A stretch of 64,000 bases of DNA, from the IMG/VR virus record IMGVR_UViG_3300009716_000001, one strand, 5' to 3'. Under the pieces are notes generated by a model that was not told the origin of the DNA, did no database searches, and saw nothing but the letters and a program-made list of their open reading frames with translations. Made by a program: the position numbers and the translations under genes. The stretch comes from a virus. This document shows, piece after piece, positions 10,670-39,356 of the stretch. How positions within the stretch are numbered: position 1 is the stretch's first letter; each line of letters starts with the position of its first letter.

Positions 10670-10676
10670 TAGTAAA

Positions 10677-10708: not shown

Positions 10709-11391
10709 CACCAGTTGTTGAGTATGCTGAGTACATGGTGAATGTGGCGCATGGACTTGATAGTTGAATCAAAATCATGTTCAGCTCCATCCTTTCTGCA
10801 GCGATAAACATGGTGAGATTTTATCACCTTGCCTTTGGCAATCCCGTATTGGTATATCAGGAGAGACTTATCCCACTCGGGCATGTCCATTAAACATCTT
10901 CCTATAAACATATCTTCGGCACCATAATAACAAGCCGGTACACGAGTCCCGTAAAATTCAACCAGGAATTCGACCAGGTCACGGGAAAGAGCAATACCCT
11001 CACCCCACATAAATGGCCAATTACAATCCGGTGAAGGAGGTCCTTCGTAAGGTTGTCCACCGAAGTAATGTTCTCTGGGTTTATTCTGGAGGATTTTCAC
11101 CAGTTCGTGCTTGCAAACATACGTTGAGTTATCTGTCTTGAATAGATAATCCCATTCATATTCTAAACAGCGTCTCATAGCCTCGATTGCATGATTAAAC
11201 ATCAGATAATAATGTGTATTGGATCTGACGTACAAATCTTGTCCAAACCAACCTTCCTTGTGAGGGTCTGGAAAATAGAAAACAGTTTTAACCTGGGAGT
11301 GCGGAATAGCATCCCAGGTTTCTTTTTGCGTTTGGATTAGCTCCCTGTATCCATCTTTGTCTATGGACTGGACCAATACAAGAACCTTCAT
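10708..11391 (-). CDS. GT31/Fringe-like glycosyltransferase (227 aa) with degenerate DxD (D-N-S)
   Basis: YRELIQTQKETW resembles the RxxAIRxTW motif. WDYLFKTDNSTYV occupies the position of the K-x-DDD-x-[FY]-V motif. WGEGIALSRDLV resembles GGxGxxxSR, and AEDMFIGRCL resembles EDVxxGxCL. Confidence 0.55.
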   Translation of the reverse strand: MKVLVLVQSIDKDGYRELIQTQKETWDAIPHSQVKTVFYFPDPHKEGWFGQDLYVRSNTHYYLMFNHAIEAMRRCLEYEWDYLFKTDNSTYVCKHELVKILQNKPREHYFGGQPYEGPPSPDCNWPFMWGEGIALSRDLVEFLVEFYGTRVPACYYGAEDMFIGRCLMDMPEWDKSLLIYQYGIAKGKVIKSHHVYRCRKDGAEHDFDSTIKSMRHIHHVLSILNNW

Positions 11392-14300
11392 TAGCGTTTA
11401 ATATCTTGAGCTTTTTGGAAGTTTGTTATCTGCTGTGCAGGGTCAATGTTAGATGCATTCAATCCGAACATCTTGCCCATATGAGCCCATAACTTCAATC
11501 CGCCTTGGTCTTGCCAAGAGTATGGACCTACGCGTCGCTTATAGTACTGTCCACCTTTATCATCCCAGATATCAATCAAGTCAGAACCCATAGCCTCGTA
11601 AGAGTTAATAGTTGGACCCATCACAAGGGACTTCAGGTCAAGCAGCTGGCTGGCATTCTTGATACCTGGACCAGGTAAGAACTGTTCGTTCTCAGCACGT
11701 ACTTGCATCATCATGTTCATCGCATGTAATGAAAGGAATCCACCTGCATCAAAGTGTTCTCCTGGTTGATAATCACGAGTTCCTGGAATCTGTAAGAATG
11801 AAGAGCGCTCTCTAAGTTTAGCAAAACGTTCTTCATCGTCATCATCCCATCCCCATAATAAGCCAAGAAGTAATCCCATCATATAGATAGAACCAACTTC
11901 CGTAACTAATTTCATCCAAGCTTTTTTATCAGCTTTAGTCATGTTGTTGACATTGCGGGTGCGGAGTAAAGTAAGGAAAGATTTAGCTGCAGATACATAG
12001 TAACCCTCATCAATCTCCCCGTATCCAGGATTCCAACGTTTCTGACCAAAACGGTTCATTGCCATTGTGGTAAAGAATCTACGTAAGAAAGATACAAATC
12101 GGAAAGCCAAATAACGTTGTGCTTCTGGCTGATCAAATTTAGCATAGGCACCATTCAGTTTATTCATTACAGCATGGATACGAGTCTTGAATTTTTTAAA
12201 CTCTTCACCCACTTTCATGTTACCTTCTTCATCGTAAGTGATACCCCAAGTAGGGTCAACTCCAGCTTTCAATTGAATCTTACCGTTCTTGCCAATCTCC
12301 CACACATCCATATAGTCAACCATCTTGCCGTTCATTTCCACCTGTTGCTTGTACATCATACCTGCAAAGGTTTGCATACCCGCTTGAATCTCTACCCACT
12401 TACGGAAGTTAGTAAACCAACCTGTGCTGACAATATCTTTAGCCATTGTACGAGATACGGATGTACCGAACTTCTCATGAAATCGTCCCTGGATTGGGTC
12501 AAATATTTCTCCCAGTTGGTGTTCGAAACTCTTTTGACCTTTCGTATAGGCGTCACCAAAGCTGAGTTTCATCATGTATTTAGATGACCAAGCTTCACCT
12601 TTAGCTAGACTCGTCATTGTTACGTCATCTCCACCGGCAGCGTGAATCATTGCCTGGAACTTAGCGCCTAATGCATTCTTCATAGCAGAAGGGATGTTGA
12701 AAGCAAAGAAGGAGAATGAAGCACGACCAAACAACCCGCGTTGAATGTTCTGAATCATCTTTGAATCTTTACCAAAACCTGTGGTAGTTTCTCCACGAAA
12801 CTCTCTGTTGTAAAGGTTAGAGAATGCATTTCTACGTACATACTTTCCTTTCTTGTTCAGGTAAGTTGTAATACCAAAGTTCACAAAGTTGGACCTGTTG
12901 ATTTTGTCCATCTCTTTTAACTGCTGCTTAGGGTCTTCAAGAATATTCTTGATACCACTTGCAACCGGATTCATTTTCACCAGCTGTTTATGTTGTTCTG
13001 CACCGTATAGGTAACGGAACATACTGTGAATAATATCAGTAGAAGTACGGTTCAAGTCCAAGTTGAATAGTCCCTGGATTGGGATGTTCTCAATCTGATC
13101 GTCGAACGCATCTGCACGCACCAGTTGACTCTCTTGTTCCCAGTTAAAGTTGGTACCTGAGTCAGCTTTAGCTCCTTTAAAGAAATCTCGTATGCTGGCC
13201 AGGAGAGTTCGAATTGTACTTACCTTTTCTTTGGCGCCTTTGATACCCTTCGCCTGTAGCTTTTCTAGACCTTCCATCTCGAAACGCGGGAAGTCAAGAT
13301 ACAACTTACCACGTTTTCCAAGACCCTCCTGCGTTTTAAGCTGATGCTTTGTAACCAGTTCAAGGATTTTGAAAAGCTTGTTCTCCTGAGAACCCTCTGG
13401 AGCATTTTTTAACTTGAAGTACTCTTCATTATAGTAAGGTGAGCCTTGGATTTGTTTTGGTAACCATCCATTGTCACTACCACTGTTGTCACGGTGAACA
13501 CCTACAATAGGTCTTACAGCACCAAAGGTACCGTCCGCATTTTCAATTGAAGGGTCATAACCGGTATAGTATTCTTTCTTTACTACACGGCTGAAGTATT
13601 TAGTTGTAGGAACACCTGGAATGAATTCAGATGTACCATCCTCACGTTTGATTTCAGTAGTCTCATACATGTTCTCGTCATTAGGTTTAATGACATTCCA
13701 CACGTATAAGCGTTCGTATTTAGGAACCTTTACACCAGTCTCTTTATCAAAGATCATTTTCACGGTGTGGTTCTGGTCAAACCATTCTTTAAACTGAGCA
13801 TTTTGATTCAGGAGAGAAAGCACCTTTTCGTCATAAATCTTACCGACAGTGTTCACATCCAGTTCGGTTGTAGCCAACAATTTATAAACTTCAGGGTCAT
13901 TAATCTCATTCAGGAATTGATTAATGGCGTCAACATAATACTCAGTAGGTTCTTTTCTTTGTAGTTCGTTTAACTCAGCAAAGGCTCTGTTAAGAGAAGC
14001 ACGGTCAAACTTACTCAAACCTACGTCGTTTTGTTTATCTAGTAATGCAGTATAGTCACTCCATTCTGCGCTGGTTAATTTTGTTCCACCTTTTTTGGTA
14101 ACGGAGTACGCAATCAGACGGTCCATCTCAGCTGTAGTTAATCCGGAGAAGCCCGCCCATTTAGCTTTAGCATCTTCCATCTTTTGCTGAGCATCCTTTA
14201 CAATTTGTAAACGAGCACCAGGTATTTCATTTCCTACAGGTTGACCATCATCATCACGGTATCCGGAAACAACATCCAAGATTTCAACCCAGCTGTTACT

Positions 14301-17300
14301 GAAGTCAAGTTCATTAGCCTGTGTTGAAGGAAGCTTTGCTAGAATCTCTTTTATACGGGCCAATATTTCAGCACGACGTTCGTAGAATTCTGGTTTAATT
14401 TGAACACGAGTATTCAAGTTAATCCATTCCTTACGGTACGTTTCAAACATTGCTTCGTATTGGTCTTCCCATTCAGACGCCTCAGTTGGGTCAGTAGGTT
14501 TAGAACCAAGCAACTGGGTGATCTTCGCCTCAATCTCTTTTTCAAAGTTAAGTAAGGCATTCTCAAAAGCTCCCTCACGAGGTTTAAACTCGTAGAACTT
14601 TTTCATTTTCTCTTTGTACTCAGTCAAGCGTTCTGCAATGGCTAAGTCATTATTGATGTTATTACGTCCAGGAGCTTTCTCGATGAAGCTGTTTGATGTG
14701 TGTACTACACCTGCATCATCCACATAAGAGTTAGTCTTTTTTGTTCCATCGGCATAATACGATGAATGCAAGAACTTATACTTTTTCCACAGTAAACCTA
14801 ACTGCTCAGTGTTTTTTAATACATCAAACTCATCCATTGCTTTAGATTGAAGCAATCCGATTTCATCCAGAATCTTCTGACGTTCAAAGGCAGCCTGTTC
14901 GCCAAGTTCACCCTCAAGTAATTCTGAAGCTTCATAGTATTCGTCCACATATTTTTGGTGGAACCATTGCTTCATGTGCTTGTTCTTTTCTGCAATCTTT
15001 TTACGTAATGCATCTTTATCCTCTTCCATCCCGCTACGGTTGTAGTTATCTTGAAGAGTTTTTATATCATAGTTGAATTGGTCAATTGTAGCACGGTAGT
15101 TCTTGTTGGCATTCAATAATGTCCATACCTCTTTGGTAACAAACTTCTTTTGTTCCGGGTCAAAGTAACCAATGGTGTCTACAAAACCAATCTTCTTACC
15201 AAGGTCACCAATATTTGTAAAGGTAATACCTGCAGAATCTAGTAAAGGTTTTAATTCAGAAACGATATCGTTGTAACGTGCCTGAACACGAGACTCCATT
15301 TCAATCATGTTATTCTTGAAGTACTTCGCAAAGCCTCCAATTACAGGGTCAGTATTGTAAAGGTATCCTTCCAGGTAAGAGTTAGCCCAGTTAGCATCTT
15401 TACCCTCCCCGCGTAAGGCCGCTTCAATCTTAGTCTTAGTAACGTTGAATCCGTTTAAGGAAAGCTTTTTAAGATTTTCATGCTCACCCATTTCAGCACC
15501 ATTCAGTCTTTGACCACTGTCCAGCTTAGCATTTAATTCTCTCAAGCGAGTAACACCTTCCTCAGGCATACCGTGGAAATCAATGAAAGCTTTATCAATG
15601 ATTGACTTGTTAGCGCCTTGTTTCTTCAGTGTAGCTATTTGCTCATTGAATAATTTTTCTGCTTGCTCAGACATGTCTTTCCATTGGTCCCATAATACAT
15701 CAGTGATACCTGTGGTATTCATAGCATTTATGTGACGAGCGGAGTTCTCCATTGTTCCTTGAATACTGTTCAGTAATGTAGTCATAGGAGAACGAGGATC
15801 TGCACCGGCTTTTTGCATCATGTCTTTTGCCTCAGCAATATATTTTTGCCAGTAGTTTAATACATGGGAATAGTAATATGCTTTGTGAACCATATCTCGG
15901 TGATTCTCTTCTTCCTCCTGAGTAGTAGGAGTCTTTTGAGCCTCAGCCTGTAGTTTATTAAGATGAGCTTCCATCTTCTTCATCATCACTTCCAGACGAA
16001 GAATACTGGTAACTAAAGCAGTTCCTTCATTACGAGTACGGTCTACATCTTCAGCAAGCTCTTCCATTTTAGCCTGAAGTTGTTTAGCGTATTTAGCTAC
16101 ATTAGAACGCATCTCCTGTAAGTCACCACGGTTATAGTCATCCACAAATAACTCAAGCATCTCACGGTAGTTACGGTTCTTCATCAACATTTCAATTTGT
16201 TGAGCAGCTCCTTCGTACATCTTACGAGATAGGTCAGTTAAATGTTGTGCACCGGCCGTTTCTGTTGCGGCATTTAAGTCATCCAGGTATGCACTGAAGT
16301 CATCACTGTAAGCGACAACATCCTTATCAGAAACAGCATTAGTATCAATCTCAAACTGGTTACCTTTTACAAGCATCTCAGCTAGTTCATCCAAAGTTGT
16401 GTTACCATCTAATTTGGCTACGTCAACCTTTTTACCGAATGTCCCTCTTAAGATTTGCTTAATCGCATACAGGAGCTCATCAATGAACTTCTGGAATGGA
16501 CCCATCAGTTGTACGTTGTTTGATTTGATCACAGCGGCTACCGTTAAAGAGCGTACTAATATCTCTTCACCCACAATATTTTGATACTTAGCAGCTAGTT
16601 CAGCTGCACGTCTTGGGTCAGACTCCTGCTCAAATGCTTTAAGTAAATCCGCATACTCAGCTTGTACCTCTTCCAAAATTTTTGGAGCGGAGGCAATAGC
16701 CTTGTTAACTAGTTTTTGAAATAATGGAGGGTTTTGCTGTTGAATACTACGAATAAGCGGATGAGAAAACTCATGGAATGCTAATTGTGTATTAAGCTTA
16801 CTACCTACAAAGTAAACAGTATCCCCATAGAAGAATGCAGAACCTTTAGTTGCATTGTAGGGGTTCTCCGACTCTGCAGTAATACGGGCTGCTTCTTCAG
16901 GAGAAACAACCTGAAACCCAACTCCTAATTGCTCAGAAAGTTTGGTAGCTAGTTCTATACCACGAGTGTTACTATTTGAGGTAACGTCCAACTCAATCAA
17001 GTTAACATCGCTAGTCAAAGCCGCATTCCCGTACAGGGAGTTAGGGTCAGTGAACAAGGTTGTGTCATTTGATTTGCTCAGGATAATCTTTTCCTGTCTA
17101 TCCATCTCAGCTTGAATTGCTTCAGCTGACTTAGGTGTTGACCTTTTAGATAGCTTTTCTATAACAAGTTCAGGAGTAAGTACAGGGCGACCATCGATTT
17201 CCGCCTCCATAAATTCTCTCATTGCCTCAAGTTTACCTAACTCGGGATGCTGTTCTAAGGCATCCCATTGAGCTTTGATTTGAGGGTCGCTAAGATTTGG

Positions 17301-17312
17301 ACATATTTTCAT
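11391..17312 (-). CDS. giant virion cargo/ejection-type protein (1973 aa): N-terminal HExxH zincin module, C-terminal hydrophobic region
   Basis: HEFSH lies at aa 180-184 (16761-16775) and GEEILVRSL about 65 aa later. The middle is long, charged and helical-looking. The C-terminal third has several hydrophobic segments, including VGSIYMMGLLLGLLWGW (11847-11897) followed by DDDDEE. There is a 1-nt stop/start overlap with the next gene. Confidence 0.55.
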   Translation of the reverse strand: MKICPNLSDPQIKAQWDALEQHPELGKLEAMREFMEAEIDGRPVLTPELVIEKLSKRSTPKSAEAIQAEMDRQEKIILSKSNDTTLFTDPNSLYGNAALTSDVNLIELDVTSNSNTRGIELATKLSEQLGVGFQVVSPEEAARITAESENPYNATKGSAFFYGDTVYFVGSKLNTQLAFHEFSHPLIRSIQQQNPPLFQKLVNKAIASAPKILEEVQAEYADLLKAFEQESDPRRAAELAAKYQNIVGEEILVRSLTVAAVIKSNNVQLMGPFQKFIDELLYAIKQILRGTFGKKVDVAKLDGNTTLDELAEMLVKGNQFEIDTNAVSDKDVVAYSDDFSAYLDDLNAATETAGAQHLTDLSRKMYEGAAQQIEMLMKNRNYREMLELFVDDYNRGDLQEMRSNVAKYAKQLQAKMEELAEDVDRTRNEGTALVTSILRLEVMMKKMEAHLNKLQAEAQKTPTTQEEEENHRDMVHKAYYYSHVLNYWQKYIAEAKDMMQKAGADPRSPMTTLLNSIQGTMENSARHINAMNTTGITDVLWDQWKDMSEQAEKLFNEQIATLKKQGANKSIIDKAFIDFHGMPEEGVTRLRELNAKLDSGQRLNGAEMGEHENLKKLSLNGFNVTKTKIEAALRGEGKDANWANSYLEGYLYNTDPVIGGFAKYFKNNMIEMESRVQARYNDIVSELKPLLDSAGITFTNIGDLGKKIGFVDTIGYFDPEQKKFVTKEVWTLLNANKNYRATIDQFNYDIKTLQDNYNRSGMEEDKDALRKKIAEKNKHMKQWFHQKYVDEYYEASELLEGELGEQAAFERQKILDEIGLLQSKAMDEFDVLKNTEQLGLLWKKYKFLHSSYYADGTKKTNSYVDDAGVVHTSNSFIEKAPGRNNINNDLAIAERLTEYKEKMKKFYEFKPREGAFENALLNFEKEIEAKITQLLGSKPTDPTEASEWEDQYEAMFETYRKEWINLNTRVQIKPEFYERRAEILARIKEILAKLPSTQANELDFSNSWVEILDVVSGYRDDDGQPVGNEIPGARLQIVKDAQQKMEDAKAKWAGFSGLTTAEMDRLIAYSVTKKGGTKLTSAEWSDYTALLDKQNDVGLSKFDRASLNRAFAELNELQRKEPTEYYVDAINQFLNEINDPEVYKLLATTELDVNTVGKIYDEKVLSLLNQNAQFKEWFDQNHTVKMIFDKETGVKVPKYERLYVWNVIKPNDENMYETTEIKREDGTSEFIPGVPTTKYFSRVVKKEYYTGYDPSIENADGTFGAVRPIVGVHRDNSGSDNGWLPKQIQGSPYYNEEYFKLKNAPEGSQENKLFKILELVTKHQLKTQEGLGKRGKLYLDFPRFEMEGLEKLQAKGIKGAKEKVSTIRTLLASIRDFFKGAKADSGTNFNWEQESQLVRADAFDDQIENIPIQGLFNLDLNRTSTDIIHSMFRYLYGAEQHKQLVKMNPVASGIKNILEDPKQQLKEMDKINRSNFVNFGITTYLNKKGKYVRRNAFSNLYNREFRGETTTGFGKDSKMIQNIQRGLFGRASFSFFAFNIPSAMKNALGAKFQAMIHAAGGDDVTMTSLAKGEAWSSKYMMKLSFGDAYTKGQKSFEHQLGEIFDPIQGRFHEKFGTSVSRTMAKDIVSTGWFTNFRKWVEIQAGMQTFAGMMYKQQVEMNGKMVDYMDVWEIGKNGKIQLKAGVDPTWGITYDEEGNMKVGEEFKKFKTRIHAVMNKLNGAYAKFDQPEAQRYLAFRFVSFLRRFFTTMAMNRFGQKRWNPGYGEIDEGYYVSAAKSFLTLLRTRNVNNMTKADKKAWMKLVTEVGSIYMMGLLLGLLWGWDDDDEERFAKLRERSSFLQIPGTRDYQPGEHFDAGGFLSLHAMNMMMQVRAENEQFLPGPGIKNASQLLDLKSLVMGPTINSYEAMGSDLIDIWDDKGGQYYKRRVGPYSWQDQGGLKLWAHMGKMFGLNASNIDPAQQITNFQKAQDIKR

Positions 17313-17323
17313 CTTTATACTAA

Positions 17324-23300: not shown

Positions 23301-26300
23301 TCTTTCATTTCAAAGATGGAATTTAACCACAGAGACGATGCCGCAAACGGATTGATATTTATATCAAGATATCTCATGTGAGGAATAGCCATTAAGTCTT
23401 GGTAAGACTCTGCACTATTAATCGTTGACACCATGATACTCATACTGTTGTGTAAGCTCAATTCATATTGAGTATTTCCCTCAGCATTGGTTTGAGCATA
23501 ATTAGATGTATGGTCACTATGCTTGTTCTCCAGATCAGCTAAAGCTGTTAAGTTAGCGTTGTCACTAGCTAATCCTAAATCTTCATACTCTTTAAACACA
23601 TCATCTAATGAATATACACGTTTTATGTTATTCTTAGAAAGTGTTTTCAGTCTTGTTAATATTACAGCAGGATTTCCAACATTGCTATTAACTGCAGTAT
23701 TTATAACCGGTTTATCACTTAGTAATACACCGATAGCTCTCAAGAAACCAGGAGCATCTTTAAGCTTACCTTTAGTATCTGTGAAATCAGCAATCACGGC
23801 ATCAACATCTAAGTAATTCATGTTGAATGTAGGGTTTTGTTTTCCCTCAGGTGTTGCCTCATTCATATCACGAAGAATGTAATCCGTATTCATTGTACGG
23901 AAAGCATTTCTCCATAGGTTACCTGTTCTACGAGAACTTGAATTAGCTTGACCAATAGTCATTTTATAGCTTGAAGAAACTACACCATTGTCTTCACGAG
24001 TTGTTTCTTCAACCGTCATTTGAATTAACGGAATACTAACCATGTTGAAGGTAGCCCAGAACTTTTGCCATAATGCAGTATCAGCTTCTGATTGTGTATC
24101 CACTGGTCCAAGTTTATCTAATAACTCAGATATAGTTGGGTCAATTATACGAGTCACTTCACCTGCAGCATTTCTCTCATGAGCGGCTTTATCTAAAGCT
24201 TTCCACATATCCGGTCTGCTCATGATACCATTTAAGGTACGAGCAATCTTATTCCATACCACATGGGTATCTGCTAACTCATGAATACCTATAACGTTTT
24301 TTACCGGTAAACCGTTTTTATCAAAGCGGTGAATACTGCGTAACAGATATTTTACTTCAGGAGAAGACAAGTCGTATTGACTGGTTTCATTTCCGGAGCG
24401 GTCAAAACCTTGACCACGCGCTTCCTCGTTTTGTTTTACCTCATCAATTTCGCTGTCATCAAACAATGATTCCTTATCCTGTTCTGATAAGTACTTAGAC
24501 TTAAGTACATGGTAAGCAATAAGACCTTTATTGTCTTTGTTGTTAGCAAGGTTCTCAATATCACCAAAGTTTGGACCAGTAGCCCATTCTAAAGTGTTAA
24601 TGCTTTGCTGAAGTATATTTCGCTTGTAAGCTGTTTTTGGATCTTCACCAGATAACTCATCACGTTCTTTAATGAGTTTGTCTTTAGTTTTGATAAGTTC
24701 TTGAAGAACGGTTCTGTAAACAGACTTTCTATTCTCAGGTGTACTCATTAATTGAGTTACATAAGACCTGTCACCTTTTGATTTTGAAACAAACGTTGCA
24801 AACTTAGAGATGATAGAGTCCATTGAGTTCACCAACATGTTGGCATTCTGCAAGTCAATTACCTGGCTACTGCTGTTTTTATCACGAGCTTGTAAGCTGT
24901 TTAATACACCTATTGATTTGTCACGGTTGTTAACGTCAAAGTTATACTTAGACAAATCACCAACACGTAGGTTTTCATACATCTCAAATATAGGTCCATA
25001 ACTCAGCGGGTTTTGAATTAAATCTGCTGCAGGTACTTGGTGTATTGTAAATAGGGCTTTTAAGAAATCAAGTATTTGTTTAAATATAGAACGTGTTCCT
25101 GGAGAACCTTTTATCATCTTTTTACCACCGGATATCATGAACTCTCTAAATTCTTCTGCTAAGAACTCTTCAAGTTGCCATACATCAGCACTTTTAAAAG
25201 AGACAGTATTTCCATTGTAGTCTACAAATGAGCCAGAACGATTGCGTGCTTCAGCATATAATGTTTTACGTTGGTCAGCCGTAAGGAAAGTTTGTGTAAA
25301 ACCGTGCCATGCTTCATGATATAAATCAGTGAAGTCACCACTTTTTGATGCATCAAACTTACCATCCTCAGAGTAATAATGGAATAAACGGATACCATGA
25401 ATTGACCATTGAGCAACTGGACCAATACCTTGGTTCACTGCTCTGAACACAGTTTCAAAAGGAAAGTGCTTCTTCAATGGACTATTGTTGTACCAAATCT
25501 CAGCTTGTTTTATTTGATGTGCTAAAACAGCAGAGTTCAATTCTTTTTGAGGAAGTCTTTTATCCATCGTAAAGCCTGCAGCCAATTCATCCAAATCAGC
25601 ATTAGATTGTGTAGCCGCTGTATTGGTTGGTTCTTTTTTCTCTACAGGTTCTTGTGATTTTTCAACTTGCTCTTGAACTTTTGCACCAGGTATGAACTTA
25701 GTAAACTCCTCTAGCGTAGGAGCAAAAGTCATTACAGGATTAAATGCTACAACTTTATTGTTAGCATCAACCTTTGCGATAGTTGCATAGTTATCTCTTA
25801 TGAAATTATTATAAGGCATTGGAGTAATTGTCAACACACCGTTGTTGATAGTTGGCATTTCCAATACACCATTGATCAAGTTTCCTACCACGTCTACGTG
25901 TGGGAAATTGATTTTGTAAAAGTCTCCTTTGTCGTCTTCTAAAACATTATTGGTGTTAACTTGACCCTCTAATGTTTTAACGGGTACTACACCTTCCTTA
26001 GCTAAGTTCTCTCGTTTAAGAGGAACCTTAGCACCTTTGCTTGGAGTGGTAAATGCTTTTTGTAAAGCCTCAGCTAATTTATTTCTGTTAGCTGTTCCGC
26101 TTTCAGTATAGTCAAAGCTGTAACGTACACCATTAATATCCACACGGAATTGACCATTCTCATGTGTAAAGCCTCCGTCTTTAGTGTTTGGTACAAAACG
26201 GATATTGCTATACTTAGCTAATAAGAACTGTTGAATAAGTGCATTCCTCCTTAGAATATCAACAGGCTTACCATTCTCTGTTAATGGTTGAGTGAATAAA

Positions 26301-27637
26301 GAGATAAGCTGATTCATAAGTTCAGGCATATCTTTCACAGAAGGTTTATCAATGTTGATAGGCTCACTAATTCCAGGAGCATAGAAATATGCACCACCCA
26401 TTGGTAAGTTCATACCTAACTCTTCTTTCTTAACAGAGATTGGAGAAAACGTATTCTCACCAAAGATTTGTTTAAGCGGAGTCGGGTTATATTGATTGTT
26501 GATAACAAACCCTTTTGAAGAACCTGTAATAACAGCTTGAACTGAATTACCTTTTTCTTCTACATATTGACGCATCCATTCGAATGCTTCAAAGTCTCTT
26601 GTTAAATTATCAAGTGCCTCCATTTCAGCTTCAACTTCAGTCATACCCGCATCTCTGTACTGACGTACTAAAGCATTGTATTTGGTCATAACTGTGTTAT
26701 AGAAAGAAGCTGCATTCTTTTTCTTTTGCCAGTCTTTCATTGTACTATACTCAGGACTGGCCATCACATGATCCATGAAAGCTTTCTGATTCAAATCAAG
26801 AATCATAGTTCCTCCTGCATTTACTTTGAAAGGAACAGGGCTGTATAGTTTAAACCATGAAGCACCTTTACCATTTGTAATAGCTTTACCGGTACCATCA
26901 AATGATACAGGTTCACCCCATGAGCTGGTAAGAACAGCTACCATACCTTTATCAGCATGGGTATAACTTGGACGACCTGCAAGTTTATTAGCTTCACCTG
27001 CTGGCATAATCTTTAAAAATACAGGACCTACACCAGGTACATTTACTTGTGAGCTATCAGAGACACCTTGCTTTTCCATCAGTTCTCTAATGGTTTTAAT
27101 AGCTGCAATGTTTAGTACATTCTCTTTTACAACCTCTCCTGTTTCAGTTATCTCTGGTCCATAGGTATAGAATGCACCAAATGGTAACGTTTTCCATGGT
27201 TCAGCTTTTTCTTGCTGTTTTTCTTCAGACTCAATTACGGGTTCAGGAGCAACCTCGGTTTTAATATCCTGTTCCACCGCATCAATAATCTCAGCTGGTG
27301 ATTCAGTTAAACCAAGAACTTCTCTTACTTTATCGATACTACGGAAAGCTTTTTTCTTTGCAAGAACTTCCATACGGATGTCTTCATTGAATTTTTCAAA
27401 GTGCTCTTCTAACTTTGGTCTATTAGCTAATGTCTGGTCAACAAAACCAGGTACCAGCATTGCGGCATCTAATGCTAAAGCTTCATTCCCTTGAGAAGAA
27501 ATTTTAGCAAAGTTATACACCTCCCTGATATACGCATCAAGGTCAAGAGGCTCGTCGCCTTTTGCTTTTGTAAATAAATCAGAGGCTACCATTACGAATA
27601 GCCCATCTCGCATTTCCTGGTTTAATAAACAGCTCAT
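17324..27637 (-). CDS. giant protein (3437 aa) with beta-prime-like DPBB catalytic loop: candidate virion RNA polymerase, plus HExxH module
   Basis: ITGPRIPTQ...NIVVLPSEIVAKSGGDFDIDKITFMFP places DFDID at aa 2310-2314 (20696-20710). FKSGSKIS lies at aa 1953-1960 (21758-21781). HEAWH lies at aa 774-778 (25304-25318) with LEEFLAEEF 45 aa later. The C-terminal DVIFAING...GGAD...KIAFPKAGFG is macro-like. Confidence 0.55.
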   Translation of the reverse strand: MSCLLNQEMRDGLFVMVASDLFTKAKGDEPLDLDAYIREVYNFAKISSQGNEALALDAAMLVPGFVDQTLANRPKLEEHFEKFNEDIRMEVLAKKKAFRSIDKVREVLGLTESPAEIIDAVEQDIKTEVAPEPVIESEEKQQEKAEPWKTLPFGAFYTYGPEITETGEVVKENVLNIAAIKTIRELMEKQGVSDSSQVNVPGVGPVFLKIMPAGEANKLAGRPSYTHADKGMVAVLTSSWGEPVSFDGTGKAITNGKGASWFKLYSPVPFKVNAGGTMILDLNQKAFMDHVMASPEYSTMKDWQKKKNAASFYNTVMTKYNALVRQYRDAGMTEVEAEMEALDNLTRDFEAFEWMRQYVEEKGNSVQAVITGSSKGFVINNQYNPTPLKQIFGENTFSPISVKKEELGMNLPMGGAYFYAPGISEPINIDKPSVKDMPELMNQLISLFTQPLTENGKPVDILRRNALIQQFLLAKYSNIRFVPNTKDGGFTHENGQFRVDINGVRYSFDYTESGTANRNKLAEALQKAFTTPSKGAKVPLKRENLAKEGVVPVKTLEGQVNTNNVLEDDKGDFYKINFPHVDVVGNLINGVLEMPTINNGVLTITPMPYNNFIRDNYATIAKVDANNKVVAFNPVMTFAPTLEEFTKFIPGAKVQEQVEKSQEPVEKKEPTNTAATQSNADLDELAAGFTMDKRLPQKELNSAVLAHQIKQAEIWYNNSPLKKHFPFETVFRAVNQGIGPVAQWSIHGIRLFHYYSEDGKFDASKSGDFTDLYHEAWHGFTQTFLTADQRKTLYAEARNRSGSFVDYNGNTVSFKSADVWQLEEFLAEEFREFMISGGKKMIKGSPGTRSIFKQILDFLKALFTIHQVPAADLIQNPLSYGPIFEMYENLRVGDLSKYNFDVNNRDKSIGVLNSLQARDKNSSSQVIDLQNANMLVNSMDSIISKFATFVSKSKGDRSYVTQLMSTPENRKSVYRTVLQELIKTKDKLIKERDELSGEDPKTAYKRNILQQSINTLEWATGPNFGDIENLANNKDNKGLIAYHVLKSKYLSEQDKESLFDDSEIDEVKQNEEARGQGFDRSGNETSQYDLSSPEVKYLLRSIHRFDKNGLPVKNVIGIHELADTHVVWNKIARTLNGIMSRPDMWKALDKAAHERNAAGEVTRIIDPTISELLDKLGPVDTQSEADTALWQKFWATFNMVSIPLIQMTVEETTREDNGVVSSSYKMTIGQANSSSRRTGNLWRNAFRTMNTDYILRDMNEATPEGKQNPTFNMNYLDVDAVIADFTDTKGKLKDAPGFLRAIGVLLSDKPVINTAVNSNVGNPAVILTRLKTLSKNNIKRVYSLDDVFKEYEDLGLASDNANLTALADLENKHSDHTSNYAQTNAEGNTQYELSLHNSMSIMVSTINSAESYQDLMAIPHMRYLDININPFAASSLWLNSIFEMKDALGRPLATNDPAFGRKRRDASGNLVKLNMSNLSGVQMTSESGTDGIASASADEFTKMIMDFHMTLNGKPELMRHADKGTSFSLWLQNIVGGAKTGGYVDTISFFKTEQGDVIGYNKAADMMMNYLDAEMKRIQKLNEIKELTKKGDVVYDEHYLKEGRKFVIFEDILTPATQAALLKDKSLVNVVPENLEKVRAEIIEYLDNQFNNVKEVFQKNHFIDKTLSARIKTEAAKAGYVTGPVANSFANKALTLTEDAMVRSFVVNSWIHNIESMNIVYGDIAQYNMKKEEFHKRNAGAGSTGNLFAVDNAMVNYVNKQGRKYAASKGFTEKQLATDGSFQTAILKDNEIPSAYFKEIRQAIAERITAKNKGLSAKELEEKIDKAVKAYTEMNEGDAQGWITFDFYRSASIMEGKWTGKQEKMYQAICAGESISMDDAMEFFPTKKYQYWGPVENRKNENGQFVKDQSGFLPTMAFHKFSLFPLIPNVIKGTNLEKLHDKLMKQGIDYAVFKSGSKISTLTKIDEEGNKIQDVLYSKGREVDETSTLTPNTVYLQFLKNQLEIAPHFKEKVTFPTQMRKLIENGLMEGGVPTDFRSDLPLPERQAEWEKLTKDEKFEKSPYYNLIKRYEANIAKLTKIKKEALIKEANIQYKTVDGKRVVQIDKKLIEFIQGELSRQELGEHEIAFLKTKKGGTGLAHDLSISLSSEKLEKILNAIVVKRLVKQKFKGEGLIQVSGAGWETNLRGELSEEERIKYGTNELPFYTRGEDGKTKAMKVKIAMQGDFRKLYELLHNDGQKIDSLERLNEMLKSEEWLNKGQHRDMVSITGPRIPTQENNSMEFAEVYEFLPEQAGNIVVLPSEIVAKSGGDFDIDKITFMFPTIKAKTNLKDIDFKMFGDFHNKTEDELKAILEKKKKDRTEEEQNIFDHIYNYYPKEVTLPMDTTTEEGLENRILKNMRDMLALKDNYASLVRPNDTDLIKPLADDLADKVMAYKPKARFRGESSKVIAGTRVFEIQYNLYKHGSNNIGKQTLGLGAVDNTYNTVFNRIGMRMNKGYTTTGGVYKDLNILLPHNRVNDESGNKVISLANLYDATGQTSISSVVAQLINGWVDIAKDAWIFNIQGNKEVSPTLLFMVQAGVPVDQAVYMVSHPLIRKYVEEQKLAKSMFAKTLGKGDKNPMFFRNAARRVMFEELFDKDTTKKLGGKAKERDEKFDQLTRDYYQSPEVKAFFNPKEVANNLYGRIENKSGMWDNVDRAIFLHFLELEEMSKVMTKVKMNTNFDTSRSATLFDAQRKSQLLADLREERMFPSAMIDAILTESPIGSFNVQDFQVELWQDLFKLRNNPVLNTFIMDKMKDLNEFNDAKDATFGDAEKMVNELRNDLTSFIFQNSIRKFNINDKVYRGMDIKSEGKEVKSLTSLRHAVFVKDGVIYMDKAQLEKDYQALALKKYKYNVTLADGTVISVAPVKATDFETADTYYSFVFEREILRDQWKGKWDVMKERADVQAKLEMYNASLAKEADETDAHFEARVNQIVFEEMLRDMAMDNTFNAAKMFRSRESMADQLTQIQIMYPELADKYSLVGALSANVMERGSSRTANIMLNDSMIDDPEKINIFHQNLLALSDPHKIELNTESAVERQRVTDFFNRFTIYAFLQSGMNTKGMYSLIRLVPQEKFTDLMTLYIPEFSSKINNVTLERYWKKFIQVNSDRRSRSRMRDYTINNYDLNADYERSGYGQASVKDVKDMIKAALKEKATTTAAPEVKFTEDAQGNMIFDAHGIGRVGATIASNKNPDVIFAINGVAQSPDGKMLDGGADKNEAALYGIKQGNVVGLPTRNTFRAGKDGQMNKADILPDGQQPVEGANGIASTGKTQTGNQPAPINSTVINPALKQQIDSAISTLKDYQAQGKKIAFPKAGFGQYMIGADDVTGELKDDKIVPIAPAAFVYLSQQLWDNFKFVNPNFDKALGFTKQANVLQANAEVTDLDVLDALSFCFKA

Positions 27638-27645
27638 GGTATTAA

Positions 27646-30600
27646 TTATCTTTTACAAGTACTAAATAAACTAGCCGCAGCATTTTTAGCTTCAGCGTTA
27701 TCAACGGTTTCAGCGTTGTTCAGAATCTCATTGGTTTCGTCAGCTGATCTTTCTTTTTCAGCTACAAGAGTTTCTGCTGATTCTTGTTTTTCCTCTGGAG
27801 TCGGTTCAGGTGTTTGTTCTACCATTTCTTTAAATTCACTGTTTTTAATCCATATGTAATTTTTAACTTCCTCTTTCGGCACTGGGATAACTCCCTCTTC
27901 ATTAATGCTTTCAGACCTTTTAACCCATTCCCCTTCAGGACTAAGTTTAAAGTTTTCCTTAAACATTTTGTATGGCATTAAAGATACAGTTTTACCATCA
28001 TTCTTCGACACAACAGCCACAGATTTTTTATCTGAAAGTATAACTACGGTACCCATCTGCAGAGTGTTGAAATCTAAATTCTCAGCAAGAGCTTTTACTT
28101 TATCTGTTAATTGGCGCATAGCAAATTCTGGAGTAAAGGGCTCTCCGAATTCTTTCTCGAAAGCATCTAGGTCACCCATCTGTAAGAAAGCTGCAGCATT
28201 ATTTTCCCATGCTTTTATCTCTTCAGCATTAGTGATTTCTGTATATTGTTCCATAAGAGCTTTTGGAGTAATAACTTCCTGACCCTCTTTTACTTCTTCA
28301 ACTGGTTTAGCTTTAGCTTTGTTGGCATCAATCTTAGCTTTTTCCTTGGCTGCGATTTCTTCGTCCTGAATCTTCTTTAGTAAACTTTCTATCTCAGGCG
28401 TTTTTGCTTGGAAGATTGCTTGTTCACGTTCGCTAAGTGCTTTTGAACCAGCAGCACGATATTTATCCACAATTAACTTTAAAGTTAAGTCTGATACGGT
28501 ACCCGTGTTTACGAAATCTTGCCATTCGTCATTGCTGATTACCTCACGTTTTCCTTTAGTGGTTGTTGTGGTTGCTTTTCCTCCTGGAATACCTTTGTTC
28601 TCTTTTTCCATCTGAGCGTTAAACTCATTGATAGGGTGAAGAGTACTGCCGGATTTTAACATGAAGTCTTGGAAGTCCTCCCTGTTTGTGATTTCGTCAT
28701 CACTTAAATCCTTAACAGCCTCTTTATCCTTAGTCCACTTACGGTATCCGTCAGCTAGTTTAGCAATTAATTCAGCGTGCGGCTTAGAAGTTAAAGCAAG
28801 AGTTTTTATTTGACCAATTGGAGTAGATTGAGAAACCTTATCTCCAGCCTTTAAAACACCTTGAACTTTTTCTTGAGCTTTAGCTGTTGGGCGATTGTCA
28901 ATCTTAGCGGTAATAATGTGCATAGCCTCATCCAATAATGATGAACCTTTTTGCACACCAAAAATTCTTTGGATATATTTAGCCACTGATTTTAGGAACT
29001 CATTCCATAAGTTACTTGGCTTACCGGTACTTGTGTATGGAATACGACTAAGCATTCTTTGGAAAGTATCGTTTGTCAATGCCTCTGAAATAAACTCCGC
29101 CTCATTCTTTAATCCATATAAAGGCTTATCACCAAACTTAGCTTTTCCTTCAGGAGAAAGCTGATACGCCATCGCTGTGGATAACATCTTAGTAATAGCT
29201 TCTTTGAACTCTGGGTCAGTCTCAAGCCCTTCTACAGTTAATGCATGAAGTAACTCGTGCAAGATAACATGTTCAACCGGATGACCGTTTTGTCCCTTCT
29301 GATAATCTTCTGAAGAGTAACGAGCATCAACTATTGTTTCTTTAGTATCTGACTTATAAACACCAGGGCCTGAATAGTCAGCTGCAAAAGTAATTACCTG
29401 ACCAGGTTTTACTACTGCAAGCAATCGTCTTGCTAAAGCTTTTTCTCGGTTAGTAGCAAACTCACTGTCCACAATAGACTTTAAAACTTTCTCTACAGCT
29501 ACGGTTGACCTAACACTTGATGGATCAAATCCGAACTGCTTGGCAAGGTCTCTATAAGTTCTCCTGTCATCTTTCCCAACACCGCCAGCAGTTGGTCTGA
29601 ACTTGGGTCTTGCCGTTGCGTTATAGTTCTCCATAGAGCGAGACTCTTCATCACTACCCGCTTCTGGAGTAGCTTTATCCTTAACCATCTGTCCAGCTTC
29701 CTGTGCGTATTTATCAATGATATCAACAGCCTGCCTGTATTTAGGGTCAGACGTTGATAATAAACTTTTATCTGCAACATTGTAAAAATCGGTTACACTG
29801 AAGTTCTTCAGACGTTCTACTTCTTCTGGTAATACAAATAAACCTAAGTCAAATATTTCATTCAACATTTGGTTCTGTAAAGCCATAGCCTTGAACTTTT
29901 CTAAAGCCTTATTAAGGCGTTCAAGCTTCTGCTCACGCTGAGACTTCTGTATGTCTTTTTGAATTTCCTTGTAACGGTCAAACATGTTAGGGTCGCTAAA
30001 TTTATTAATAGCGTGAACCATTCTTTGTTTATCCGCATTTAAAGCCATGAAGTCTTTTAACAGACTAAAGCCTTTATTCATTTGTTCTGTGAACACAAAT
30101 CCATTCTTAGTCTTAGCCACATGACGTACGTACTTATCAAAGGTTTTATACATCTGTGCTACTAAGAAATCTGCATTCTTTTGAGTAGCGGCAATCTCTT
30201 CCGGTGTAGCTCCTGGCTTTCCTAAGTTTTTTAATTCAGCTGCATAGGTATGAGCGAATACTCTCCACTCTTTTAAGTGACGCATTGAATCGATTGCTTC
30301 TTTAGCTTTCTTTCTTTCCTCAGCTGTTCCTTTTGAGAACACTTTTATTTGGTCACCCAAGCTTTGCATATGTTTACTTAGAAGAACAGGGTCAACCAAT
30401 AAACTTATATCGGTACCAATAACATCTGCCAGAGGAGAACCTGCAGAAGATGTATTGAAGAAATTAGATAAAGCTCCGTTACCGGATAACTCATTACCCA
30501 TCTTAGCCATACGGTCTGCAATATTTGAGTAACTTTCGTTAGCAAATATCATATCAGACAAGGCTTGTTCGTGGGCCATGTATTTATCTAATTCATCTTT

Positions 30601-32850
30601 GTAAGCTTCTGGGTGTTTCTCTTTGTCAAACATCCACGGGTTATGTGGATTAGGACGTGACCTGTGGGCTTTATCATAAGCTCTTTGGTAACCTTGAGCA
30701 TTGTTCTTCAGACCTTGTAGCTTATTACGAACATCTTCAGCTGTCATATTTGAACCATCCGATTTTGTTGGCTGGTTATATGCATTAAGAAGGTCTTCAT
30801 CAGAAAGCTTCATCATGTCATCAACATGTTCAGTTATCAGACCCATGTTACCGGTTCTAGCTAAAATGTCAAAGTGATTTAACTGCATTTCATTTTGCAT
30901 ATCGCGGGCAGTCTTCTCGTCCCCTTCTTTTGCTTTAGCACGTTTAGCTTCAGCTGCAGCTTTAATTCCAGCAGCAACATCCGCACGGTGACCACCGTAA
31001 ATTAAACCATTATCTAATACAAAGTTGGCTGCATTTAAGATGTCATTATCTGTTTCCTCAGCTTGCTTTTTAGCCTTAGCTGATTCAGATTCTGCACCCC
31101 ACTCTTGACCATACTTTCCTTTAGTAGCCATGTTAGCTAAAGCTGAAGCACCTCTACCTGCAGGACTTGCAATAGATTTCATACCTTTTCCACCAGCTTG
31201 GATTAAAGAACCCATCATGTAACCAGAAAGGAATGTTTCCAAACCTTGTCCAGAAAACTGAGCAGAAGTTCCTTTACCAATTGAAGCCAAGGTACCGTAG
31301 AAACCTAACTGAGATGGATCAGAGTGTACCTTATCATAGTAATCATGAGCGGCAATCTTTATCGTTTCCTGTGCATTCTCCTGAAGAGCCTCACCTAGGT
31401 TACCAACAAAATATTTACGACTCCATGGAACGTATGCAGAAGTTAATAAGAAGTCTGCAACTTTCTTACCGGCTGATTTTTCAGAAGCGGTAAGAGCCGC
31501 TGTTGCACCTTCAACTCCAGCAGTCATACCTGCTTTAAAGTCTTTAGCTGCAGTACGCTTTAAGAATCTACCTGAACCCTCTAAGAAGCTTTCAGCAATC
31601 TTAGAACCAGGACGAACTCCTTCAAACAAGTCTTCAAATACAAGTTTGTTTGTAGCGTAAATTGTTATATCGTTTGCAAGTGTAACACTTGACTTTACTG
31701 ATTGAGCACGGTCATAAATTTCTTTAGCCTCATTGTTATCAGGCATGCGTCCGTGTTCATTGTAGAATTCATCCACTAATTTGTTTTGGTACTCTACAGC
31801 AGCTCCTTCTCCTTCAAGACGAGCTTCTGAATGTGCCACATTTAATTCGCGTAAGTCACGGTAGAAATTACCAAAGGTCTTTGAAACCTTTGCCATATTC
31901 CCTAGATTACTTACACCGTTAGTACCTTTAGCTAAGTGTGTAGTCCACTCCATACTTCTTTGAAATGGATTAGCCCATTTAGCAAAATCAGTAAGTTTCT
32001 CACCTGCTTTAGCTGCATTAAATACATCCTTAGCTTGTTCAGCATTCTTTAAAGTTTTAAGGAACGCGGAAGTTCCTTCCCAAGCTTTAACAAGGCGTCC
32101 GAATGCCATAGCATTACGAGCACCTCCTACAGCTGCTACTTCTGGTGTAGCTGCACCCATTGTTCCGAATTCTAGAGCGGCAAGAGCGGCATCTTCTAAT
32201 GCAAGTTCTCCAATGATACCTACTGTATATGCTGAGTTTAAACCGAAGTTAATAACACTACTACCAAATCCACCACGAGTAGAAGAACCGATAGCCATTC
32301 CCTTTTCCATTTCTTCATTGGCTGTTTCTTCACTACCCCAAATAGATTTGAATCCACTGAAAGCAAGATTGTCCCATTCACCACGCATACGGTTAAAGTC
32401 ATCCCACCAAGAACCTTTCTCATTATAAAGAGCATCATTATCTCTGTATGGAGAAAAGCCTAACTCATCAAACTTACCATGCTTGTAGTAACGTTCAAAG
32501 TTTTGATTTTTATATCCGGCACCGTAACTGTAAGCACGACCATATTTGAATTGGTCTTTTACAGCTTCGTCATTTCCTAAAGCTTGTACGGAAGCTTTCA
32601 CGAAGTCAAGCGTACCATTCTTCTGATTTACAGGTTTAGCTCCTGGAGCTGGGCCAGTATGATAGTCTCCTTGTAATTGAGTATTAACCTCAACGGCTTG
32701 AGGAAATCCACTTGGGATAACCGGAGTAATAACCGGAGGAGGAGTTTTAAGCAATGCAGTAGCATCACCAGCAGCTTGTATCTCGGGAAGCGCTGGGATG
32801 ATTGGTGCTGATACTAAGCCGCTGCTGTTTGGGTTTGTTTCGTCTGCCAT
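27646..32850 (-). CDS. giant virion cargo-type protein (1734 aa) with HExxH zincin module
   Basis: HELLH lies at aa 1198-1202 (29245-29259) and NEAEFISEA 48 aa later. The N-terminal region is Gly/Ala-rich and hydrophobic. The C-terminus is acidic. Confidence 0.5.
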   Translation of the reverse strand: MADETNPNSSGLVSAPIIPALPEIQAAGDATALLKTPPPVITPVIPSGFPQAVEVNTQLQGDYHTGPAPGAKPVNQKNGTLDFVKASVQALGNDEAVKDQFKYGRAYSYGAGYKNQNFERYYKHGKFDELGFSPYRDNDALYNEKGSWWDDFNRMRGEWDNLAFSGFKSIWGSEETANEEMEKGMAIGSSTRGGFGSSVINFGLNSAYTVGIIGELALEDAALAALEFGTMGAATPEVAAVGGARNAMAFGRLVKAWEGTSAFLKTLKNAEQAKDVFNAAKAGEKLTDFAKWANPFQRSMEWTTHLAKGTNGVSNLGNMAKVSKTFGNFYRDLRELNVAHSEARLEGEGAAVEYQNKLVDEFYNEHGRMPDNNEAKEIYDRAQSVKSSVTLANDITIYATNKLVFEDLFEGVRPGSKIAESFLEGSGRFLKRTAAKDFKAGMTAGVEGATAALTASEKSAGKKVADFLLTSAYVPWSRKYFVGNLGEALQENAQETIKIAAHDYYDKVHSDPSQLGFYGTLASIGKGTSAQFSGQGLETFLSGYMMGSLIQAGGKGMKSIASPAGRGASALANMATKGKYGQEWGAESESAKAKKQAEETDNDILNAANFVLDNGLIYGGHRADVAAGIKAAAEAKRAKAKEGDEKTARDMQNEMQLNHFDILARTGNMGLITEHVDDMMKLSDEDLLNAYNQPTKSDGSNMTAEDVRNKLQGLKNNAQGYQRAYDKAHRSRPNPHNPWMFDKEKHPEAYKDELDKYMAHEQALSDMIFANESYSNIADRMAKMGNELSGNGALSNFFNTSSAGSPLADVIGTDISLLVDPVLLSKHMQSLGDQIKVFSKGTAEERKKAKEAIDSMRHLKEWRVFAHTYAAELKNLGKPGATPEEIAATQKNADFLVAQMYKTFDKYVRHVAKTKNGFVFTEQMNKGFSLLKDFMALNADKQRMVHAINKFSDPNMFDRYKEIQKDIQKSQREQKLERLNKALEKFKAMALQNQMLNEIFDLGLFVLPEEVERLKNFSVTDFYNVADKSLLSTSDPKYRQAVDIIDKYAQEAGQMVKDKATPEAGSDEESRSMENYNATARPKFRPTAGGVGKDDRRTYRDLAKQFGFDPSSVRSTVAVEKVLKSIVDSEFATNREKALARRLLAVVKPGQVITFAADYSGPGVYKSDTKETIVDARYSSEDYQKGQNGHPVEHVILHELLHALTVEGLETDPEFKEAITKMLSTAMAYQLSPEGKAKFGDKPLYGLKNEAEFISEALTNDTFQRMLSRIPYTSTGKPSNLWNEFLKSVAKYIQRIFGVQKGSSLLDEAMHIITAKIDNRPTAKAQEKVQGVLKAGDKVSQSTPIGQIKTLALTSKPHAELIAKLADGYRKWTKDKEAVKDLSDDEITNREDFQDFMLKSGSTLHPINEFNAQMEKENKGIPGGKATTTTTKGKREVISNDEWQDFVNTGTVSDLTLKLIVDKYRAAGSKALSEREQAIFQAKTPEIESLLKKIQDEEIAAKEKAKIDANKAKAKPVEEVKEGQEVITPKALMEQYTEITNAEEIKAWENNAAAFLQMGDLDAFEKEFGEPFTPEFAMRQLTDKVKALAENLDFNTLQMGTVVILSDKKSVAVVSKNDGKTVSLMPYKMFKENFKLSPEGEWVKRSESINEEGVIPVPKEEVKNYIWIKNSEFKEMVEQTPEPTPEEKQESAETLVAEKERSADETNEILNNAETVDNAEAKNAAASLFSTCKR

Positions 32851-35867: not shown

Positions 35868-35898
35868 CTTGTGCTGTAAATGTATTAAAAAAATCTGT

Positions 35899-37292: not shown

Positions 37293-37294
37293 GA

Positions 37295-39355: not shown

Positions 39356-39356
39356 C

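Follow-up and report, generated by a model that had tools for sequence, protein, structure and literature searches.

The 64,000-nucleotide stretch of IMG/VR virus record IMGVR_UViG_3300009716_000001, which in its entirety we call the window, encodes three giant open reading frames (ORFs) next to one another on the minus strand, named C, B and A in the order of their transcription. Each encoded protein contains a conserved HExxH motif with an acidic helix downstream. We consider it fairly likely that these are phage cargo proteins that each bear a zincin-like module of the metallopeptidase (MPTase) type, the modules of A and C being paralogues related to the domain in gp65 of phage phi14:2 and that of B a second type, and that the modules cleave proteins injected along with them. 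The three ORFs, their modules and the motif elements are as follows.

27646–32850, minus strand: ORF C, 1734 residues, the first giant cargo gene, recognised from the ORF list, synteny with phi14:2 and orthologues in related loci L003, L004, L002 and L014
28816–29553, minus strand: module C, gp65-type zincin-like domain (C residues ~1100–1345)
29245–29259, minus strand: HELLH of module C (C residues 1198–1202), on predicted helix 92–112 of the model
29080–29106, minus strand: NEAEFISEA of module C (C residues 1249–1257), helix that may supply the third ligand, where invariant E153 and E157 are E1252 and E1256
17324–27637, minus strand: ORF B, 3437 residues, N-terminal region with module B, followed by a fused two-barrel virion RNA polymerase of the crAss type
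24758–25540, minus strand: module B, conserved HExxH and EE, of uncertain fold class (B residues ~700–960)
25304–25318, minus strand: HEAWH of module B (B residues 774–778)
25148–25174, minus strand: LEEFLAEEF of module B (B residues 822–830), with invariant E, A, E, F and R, on predicted helix 120–136
11391–17312, minus strand: ORF A, 1973 residues, orthologous to crAss001 gp49 and in the position that gp65 has in phi14:2
16323–16970, minus strand: module A, assigned as a divergent gp65-type paralogue (A residues ~115–330)
16761–16775, minus strand: HEFSH of module A (A residues 180–184)
16545–16571, minus strand: GEEILVRSL of module A (A residues 248–256), its second E and its V invariant

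Conservation of the HExxH motifs

Translation places HEFSH, HEAWH and HELLH in the three largest ORFs of the window, exactly where a preliminary description of this DNA had located them. The intervals of 65, 45 and 48 residues that it gave between motif and acidic stretch hold roughly when counted from the end of the motif; from the first His to the start of the acidic stretch, the distances are 68 (A), 48 (B) and 51 (C) residues. The amino acid composition of the three proteins predicts 0.105 HExxH strings in their 7144 residues (0.03–0.04 per ORF), as against the three observed, and these are the sole HExxH strings among all 32 window ORFs of at least 150 residues (19,801 residues).

We joined the three module sequences into one query for an exhaustive HMMER search of 1.84 billion cluster representatives, which returned 1441 proteins at E ≤ 1e-3 and 127 at E ≤ 1e-30. 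Types were assigned, and protein statistics taken, for the best 150 of these 1441 matches. The B type accounts for 97 of them (median protein 3493 residues, median module start at residue 712), the C type for 38 (1744 residues, start at 1041) and the A type for 16 (1986 residues, start at 116), and one fused protein carries both a C and a B module. The first homologue search with module C as query had given no matches, likely because a low-complexity TTTTT stretch saturated the word index; the exhaustive search later gave relatives at 65–72% identity. A homologue search with the B alignment returned three matches, and a search for related loci with the C alignment returned three loci.

Motif columns were counted in alignments anchored on the window sequence, with the window row included. 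HExxH is present in 17/17 clusters for module A, in 97/98 for module B, where the exception reads HEAFE, and in 32/39 for module C, where the seven degenerate forms are HQLIH, REEVN (twice), REEIN, NQTLM, RNYVS and RQEIH. The Glu of the motif is kept in all 17 A columns and all 98 B columns (HEAFE counted), as well as in most C clusters. Invariant residues comprise H76, E77, H80 and E146 in A, H75, E76, E125 and E129 in B, and H99, H103, E153 and E157 in C. Among long B-type proteins, 77 of 87 have DFDxD ~1600 residues downstream of the module. The preliminary reading of these sites as HExxH followed by an acidic helix is therefore borne out, as the motifs are real, conserved and helix-borne and a conserved Glu helix lies downstream.

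Kinship of the three modules

BLASTP detects no similarity among the three giant proteins. We compared profiles of A (A7), B (A4) and C (A5, which adds gp65, cr116_1, cr1_1 and f20 to C) with hhalign, which scored A–C at 86–93% (E ~5e-6), B–C at 49–59% (E 1.7e-4) and A–B at 16–40% (E ~3e-4, in the A7–A4 run). Shallow profiles (3–5 sequences) aligned more weakly than deeper ones. Every pair keeps the register of the pre-motif strand, the HExxH helix, the Glu helix and a terminal amphipathic helix. As controls, the template columns were shuffled 80 times and the template was reversed. The A–C score of 52.2 compares with a shuffle maximum of 19.0 and 19.2 for the reversed template, the B–C score of 38.1 with 19.8 and 19.2, and the A–B score of 29.4 with 24.3 and 21.6. 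Since the modules had been chosen by their motif, we also removed HExxH together with two columns on either side. The scores then fell to 34.9 for A–C, 25.5 for B–C, with the register kept, and 22.4 for A–B, which lies within the shuffle range.

These profile comparisons indicate that A and C are homologous and that B is probably a distant relative. The earlier proposal of three paralogous or convergent MPTase modules can be retained for C, through its match to gp65 and its predicted topology, and for A, through its alignment with C; for B it is marginal. The preliminary description had also suggested aligning the three regions to one another and searching them against the MPTase-PolyVal and SprT profiles, with a divided outcome. 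The A–C alignment stands above its controls, while MPTase-PolyVal (PF18818) has no match at E ≤ 1 in the three whole proteins and its gathering threshold is not reached, the best single family member being one C-type protein at E 0.049; the SprT-like signal is sub-threshold.

Modules C and A share the gp65-type domain

We assign module C to the gp65-type zincin-like domain, which crAss-like phages share with the ejection proteins of podoviruses. Its hidden Markov model (HMM) matches phi14:2 gp65 (1.5e-12), cr116_1 (2.8e-16) and cr1_1 gp077 (1e-15), together with the gp16-like internal virion protein of Xanthomonas phage f20-Xaj (4.6e-12). A broadened C profile retrieves podovirus ejection proteins among PDB sequences (9sfn_G at 2.3e-9, PhiM1 gp48, 8vb2_A, at 2.8e-6 and 23sg_S at 6.4e-4) and weakly matches projannalysin (0.051) and lethal factor (0.1). 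Sub-threshold Pfam signals among members of the C family are to SprT-like (7 of 25), ATLF (1.8e-5, one member), M76, M91 and MPTase-PolyVal.

The AlphaFold (AF2) model of module C has a predicted local distance difference test (pLDDT) score of 87 and a predicted template modelling score of 0.81. It comprises, in order, a helix (35–47), strands at 53–57, 64–67 and 72–75, the HELLH helix (92–112, pLDDT >90) and a later helix with E153 and E157, and it fits the MPTase core as described in PMC5512222, down to the variable insert that separates the two catalytic helices. Against BFVD, Foldseek returned 21 matches at E ≤ 1e-3 with query template modelling (TM) scores of up to 0.58, and 28 of the top 29 have a probability of at least 0.99. 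The matches include crAss-like proteins, among them gp65 (S0A048), T7-like core proteins, proteins annotated 'large polyvalent protein associated domain' and N4-like virion polymerases, for example that of Vibrio phage phi 1 (1.8e-3). The PDB list consists mostly of gluzincins (IrrE, BlaR1, lethal factor, jannalysin, abylysin, selecase and PPEP-3), all non-significant, with 6cz6 and its relatives, labelled simply as a Mycobacterium tuberculosis transcriptional regulator, at the top; 8vb2, 9sfn and 23sg are missing from it despite their sequence matches. An hhalign comparison with the C1 domain of the N4 virion polymerase covered the motif region alone, at 24%, and for this reason we do not claim homology to N4 at the sequence level; the link to N4 comes from the fold match in BFVD together with Iyer 2017 (PMC5512222).

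The module A HMM matches an 809-residue ORF of MT835470 and, weakly, residues 234–357 of crAss001 gp49, and does not match phi14:2 gp65. DUF4932 appears below threshold over the motif region in 12 of 18 family members. In-register alignment with C is what places the HExxH of module A on a helix. Homology to C, together with the orthology of the protein that carries it, leads us to assign module A as zincin-like and as a divergent paralogue of module C.

Module B is a second conserved type

The AF2 model of module B has a pLDDT of 66 overall (core 82–95), with HEAWH and EEFLAEEF both on helices. The HExxH helix (70–85) reaches a pLDDT of ~70–78, and the model has only two short strands, in a low-confidence stretch; the order of its secondary-structure elements agrees with that of the C model. 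No significant profile match joins module B to the gp65-type family, and Pfam gives neither a zincin signal nor any pattern across 29 members of the B family.

The module is widespread in crAss-like phages. In cr1_1 gp076, HEAFH is followed by EVEEFLAERFRED, ~1450 residues upstream of DFDVD (HMM 1.3e-11). A tblastn search with the cr1_1 B segment retrieved 63 GenBank phage records, crAss001 among them, and those identifiable by name are crAss-like. In crAss001 itself, gp47 has an intact B-type module at its C-terminus (residues 2135–2208, HEAFH at residue 2157, HMM 2.5e-8). The B-type HMM finds no match in phi14:2. We found no description of the B-type module in the accessible literature, and the words 'protease', 'peptidase' and 'zinc' do not appear anywhere in the text of the crAss001 structural atlas paper.

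Two B-type proteins lie at opposite extremes of size. P0153, from an ENA contig of 63.9 kb, has 179 residues and is scarcely more than the module, with HEAFE and no replacement His nearby; it is possibly a stand-alone or truncated form. P0020 (JGI 3300059473) has 4984 residues and is a B-type polymerase protein that also carries NADAR, AAA_19 and AAA_30 domains, which makes it polyvalent in the full sense.

The C-B-A block is a virion RNA polymerase cargo block

Two further features of the minus strand identify the block.

41795–46963, minus strand: crassvirus muzzle protein, 1722 residues (Pfam PF25731 crAss_MUZ, E 5.8e-38; PHROG virion structural matches)
20696–20710, minus strand: DFDID, the RNA polymerase catalytic motif (B residues 2310–2314)

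The muzzle protein is the clearest marker of the window as a crAss-like phage, and its gene puts the C-B-A block inside a crAss-like tail and cargo operon. ORF B matches the sequence of the structure of phi14:2 gp66, a virion RNA polymerase (vRNAP; PDB 6VR4, E 3.5e-18), and by BLAST both crAss001 gp50 (E 1.5e-28) and phi14:2 gp66. BLAST also joins crAss001 gp49 to ORF A (E 7e-6) and to phi14:2 gp65 (E 1.8e-31), and gives no match between ORF A and gp65 at E ≤ 1e-3. ORF C and phi14:2 gp67 have no BLAST similarity and correspond by position alone. The order C, B, A equals g067, g066, g065 of phi14:2 and gp47, gp50, gp49 of crAss001. As in the vRNAP cargo block of Crassvirales, a gp66-like two-barrel RNA polymerase with DFDxD lies downstream of muzzle and cargo genes, here flanked by giant genes in the gp67/gp47 position and of the gp65/gp49 kind. 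The crAss001 counterparts were found in virions and are treated as cargo ejected partly unfolded via the tail (PMC10172136). From the polymerase homology, the shared gene order and the status of these counterparts as virion cargo, we assign A, B and C as injected, virion-packaged, RNA polymerase-associated proteins of a divergent crAss-like phage. Megablast of the window or the block against GenBank phages gave no match, and thus no close relative there.

Structural genes occupy the minus strand, and the plus strand bears replication genes, among them those for an exonuclease and a DNA polymerase of the PolA type. The coding strand and the GC skew switch at ~10–11 kb of the window. At 10674–10699, where the replication genes and the cargo operon converge, sits a GC-rich hairpin of 11 pairs, preceded by an A-run and followed by a T-run, which resembles a two-way terminator; 1.7 kb contain four terminator-like sites, as against 1.1 expected. 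ARAGORN found no tRNA genes in the 64 kb. Pfam and PHROGs, as well as NCBIfam where it was scanned, have no match for five further minus-strand ORFs. One has 227 residues (10708–11391), its start overlapping the stop of A; the other four, of 812, 689, 454 and 1004 residues, lie in the interval from the muzzle gene to C (32853–41795).

Arrangement of the modules in relatives

The common crAss-like plan places a B-type module ahead of the polymerase and one of the gp65 type behind it. The downstream protein carries the gp65-type module as HEIMH in phi14:2 gp65, HELVH in cr1_1 gp077 and EEFAH in crAss001 gp49. Given this plan, it is the copy in protein C that is the addition, a lineage-specific one that is dispensable in relatives. 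Locus L014 has all three modules intact, L003 has a C module in which Glu is replaced by Gln, and the C orthologues of L004 and L002 lack the module.

Fusion, fission and duplication are also seen. In L015 (Logan SRR27563688, 10001–22162), the C (HEIGH) and B (HEAFE) modules share one protein of 4053 residues, and the A orthologue has EEAMH in place of HExxH. L016 (JGI 3300041085, 10001–17950) has an A orthologue of 2649 residues with two A-type modules (HEFGH at residues ~130–260 and HEFAH at ~860–1056), and cr1_1 has a polyprotein of 4551 residues. Relatives further add ART-PolyVal, NADAR and AAA_19/AAA_30 helicase domains. In the gut crAss-like phages cr1_1 and cr116_1, ART-PolyVal (PF18760) lies ~120–260 residues upstream of the gp65-type HExxH module, at residues 291–399 of cr1_1 gp077 (E 5.8e-10) and 248–376 of a 2507-residue protein of cr116_1 (E 9.2e-13). 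The whole A, B and C proteins show no further recognised domains, B combining its HExxH module with the RNA polymerase. The idea of polyvalent proteins that travel with the DNA, raised in the preliminary description, fits their assignment as virion-packaged, injected proteins and with these domains of their relatives.

We also noted several other sites in the same loci. In L002 (IMG/VR 3300042691), an additional ORF of 760 residues (17266–19545) between the B and A orthologues has HELGH at residue 545; its context is module-like, yet none of the three HMMs matches it at E ≤ 1e-3. In L015, an SLT lytic transglycosylase domain is encoded within a 1022-residue gene two positions upstream of the fused C and B modules, with a 906-residue gene between. 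The 2507-residue protein of cr116_1 has two more HExxH strings (HELSH at 877, HEQVH at 2199). The phi14:2 tail protein gp70 (g070, positions 1093–2874 of its locus L001, 593 residues) has HEFTH at residue 234 and HEFIH at residue 461, in regions with no significant match to the three module HMMs.

Discussion

How might such modules work? The two His of HExxH and the Glu of the downstream helix would hold a metal ion, most likely zinc, and the Glu of the motif would activate a water molecule as general base. The strict retention of this Glu in A (17/17) and B (98/98) leads us to favour catalysis over a purely structural site. As the cargo must be at least partly unfolded to pass the tail channel, the sites would act after ejection and refolding in the host. 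Their likeliest job would be to cut the co-injected giant proteins, which would release or activate the self-inhibited polymerase, and attack on host proteins would be the next likeliest. We favour cleavage of the cargo itself for three reasons. Among relatives the genes are freely fused or divided, implying that their parts function in either state; gp66 is packaged self-inhibited, with proteolytic activation proposed (Drobysheva et al., bioRxiv 10.1101/2020.03.07.982082); and self-processing is the foremost proposal for what MPTase domains do in polyvalent proteins (PMC5512222).

A number of results weigh against cargo-cleaving zincin-like modules in all three proteins. Pfam, PHROGs and NCBIfam have no model at threshold for any of the three whole proteins. 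Foldseek found nothing significant in the PDB for the C model (best E 0.12, TM 0.2–0.25) and no match there for the B model. The A–B alignment is not significant once the motif is removed, and the profile link that joins B with A and C is marginal. In some of the homologues the motif is non-canonical or dead, examples being the C-type variants, EEFAH in crAss001 gp49, EEAMH in L015 and HEAFE in some B-type proteins. The N4 vRNAP, which bears such a domain, is packaged unprocessed (PMC5512222).

Several other explanations must be set beside cleavage of the cargo. Very long ORFs, here 7144 residues together, offer room for fortuitous motifs, and we tried chance as the origin of the three HExxH strings and rejected it. 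The excess over the 0.105 expected, the lack of any other HExxH in the 19.8 thousand residues of ORFs scanned and, decisively, the conservation of the motifs over dozens to ~100 clusters at 50% identity refute it, and we regard its probability as negligible. Module B alone might be no zincin, being instead an unrelated HExxH domain, such as another metal-dependent enzyme or an accessory element of the polymerase, that shares the motif and the helical layout. The empty PDB comparison, the 29 family members without a zincin signal in Pfam, the loss of A–B similarity upon deletion of the motif columns, the HEAFE variant without a second His and the moderate confidence of the model all speak for this. 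It remains a doubtful reading, if one to be taken seriously, against a B–C score that exceeds all 80 shuffles and the reversed control, stays at 25.5 without the motif, keeps the strand and the three helices (HExxH, Glu and terminal amphipathic) in register, and goes with the same order of secondary-structure elements as in C.

If the modules are active metallopeptidases, they could instead be aimed at the host, either at the envelope and peptidoglycan, opening a path for the ejectosome, or at cytoplasmic defence or regulatory proteins. The same domain occurs beside a lytic transglycosylase in T7-like gp16-type ejection proteins ('LT_GEWL' in BFVD; Xanthomonas phage annotation), and relatives of the window join the module with the effector-type domains ART-PolyVal, NADAR and helicase. 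The authors of the PhiM1 study read residues Asp268–Asp528 of gp48 as endolysin-like (PMC11440229), Drobysheva et al. give peptidoglycan digestion as one option (bioRxiv 10.1101/2020.03.07.982082), and Iyer 2017 lists host targets as a possibility (PMC5512222). We nevertheless consider a host target unlikely, as module B is covalently tied to a polymerase needed in the cytoplasm and the sequence carries no readable signal of substrate specificity. HExxH zincins are also not known as a usual class of peptidoglycan peptidase. The sites could also be mainly structural, binding metal or persisting as relics that aid packaging or refolding after tail passage, with no proteolysis. Motif decay in 7 of 39 C-type clusters and the absence of the module from the C orthologues of L004 and L002 fit such a role; EExxH and HExxE variants could still bind metal, and encapsidation of the N4 vRNAP depends on its MPTase region although the protein is packaged unprocessed (PMC5512222). 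A structural site would have no need of the general-base Glu, which is present in every A and B column and most C clusters, and the residues around the motif are strongly conserved as well, so we find this reading quite improbable.

Few viruses of the human gut or of marine Bacteroidota are as abundant as crAss-like phages, which begin infection by means of an RNA polymerase that is packaged in the virion and kept self-inhibited there. The present analysis places two conserved HExxH module types beside this polymerase, amounting to three modules, of two or three clades, in the lineage of the window. Two of the three are standard and largely unremarked parts of crAss-like phages, the B type being present and undiscussed in gp47 of the cultured model phage crAss001, and the C copy is lineage-specific. 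The preliminary description had called three copies in adjacent genes unusual, which overstates the case, because the combination of a B-type with an A/C-type module is standard (crAss001, cr1_1) and one to five MPTase domains per protein are documented (PMC5512222); injected polyvalent proteins with more than one metallopeptidase module are well known. The conserved residues and the proteins that carry them offer direct handles on the activation of crAss-like vRNAPs. A bolder proposal is that B is a previously undescribed, crAss-wide metalloenzyme that forms, together with the gp65-type modules, a proteolytic switch freeing the self-inhibited vRNAP after ejection and refolding. Such a switch, which we hold to be rather improbable as stated, would answer how crAss-like virion polymerases become activated.

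Comparison with known systems

The nearest known systems are phi14:2 gp65 and its orthologues crAss001 gp49 and cr1_1 gp077. ORF A is orthologous to gp49, and its module is likewise N-terminal. The gp65 domain was termed zincin-like by Yutin 2018, as relayed in the accessible text of Drobysheva et al. (bioRxiv 10.1101/2020.03.07.982082), and its pattern is that of the window: HExxH, ~50 residues, E-F-x-x-E and an amphipathic helix, with C matching gp65 directly. Unlike phages of the gp65 type, the window has two copies in two proteins, the second at residue ~1200 of the upstream protein, and this second copy (C) is absent or inactivated in close relatives. The B-type counterparts are crAss001 gp47 and cr1_1 gp076 ('putative RNA-polymerase subunit'), in which HEAFH is followed by EE-x-(L/M)AE-x-FR, a layout that module B shares; in crAss001 the module lies on a separate protein, gp47, whereas the window has it as part of the polymerase protein.

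Small gluzincins of solved structure (jannalysin, abylysin, selecase, anthrax lethal factor, IrrE and the BlaR1 protease domain) have a sheet, an HExxH helix and a Glu helix as in C, but differ in long inserts between the two catalytic helices and give no significant match. The T7-like gp16-type 'tetrameric ejection proteins' and internal core proteins (PhiM1 gp48, 9sfn_G, 23sg_S and f20-Xaj) share the C-type module, and these proteins are likewise packaged in the capsid and ejected via the tail; the text of the PhiM1 paper (PMC11440229) contains neither 'HExxH' nor 'metallo'. Unlike the window proteins, they form a trans-envelope ejectosome, often with a transglycosylase.

MPTase domains, one to five per protein, occur in 36% of polyvalent proteins, and every N4-like polymerase carries at least one by fusion (PMC5512222). 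A 2026 N4 structure paper noted a conserved HExxH in the C1 domain of the C-terminal region of N4 vRNAP without assigning it a function. This C1 domain (residues ~2130–2448) and MPTase-PolyVal resemble the window modules in having HExxH and a downstream Glu in giant DNA-travelling proteins, in being tied to a virion RNA polymerase, often in several copies, and in the ART and helicase domains of their relatives. They differ in the polymerase itself, which in the window is of the two-barrel crAss type and in N4 of the T7-like type. One shared domain links crAss-like cargo, T7-like ejectosome proteins and N4-like virion polymerases.

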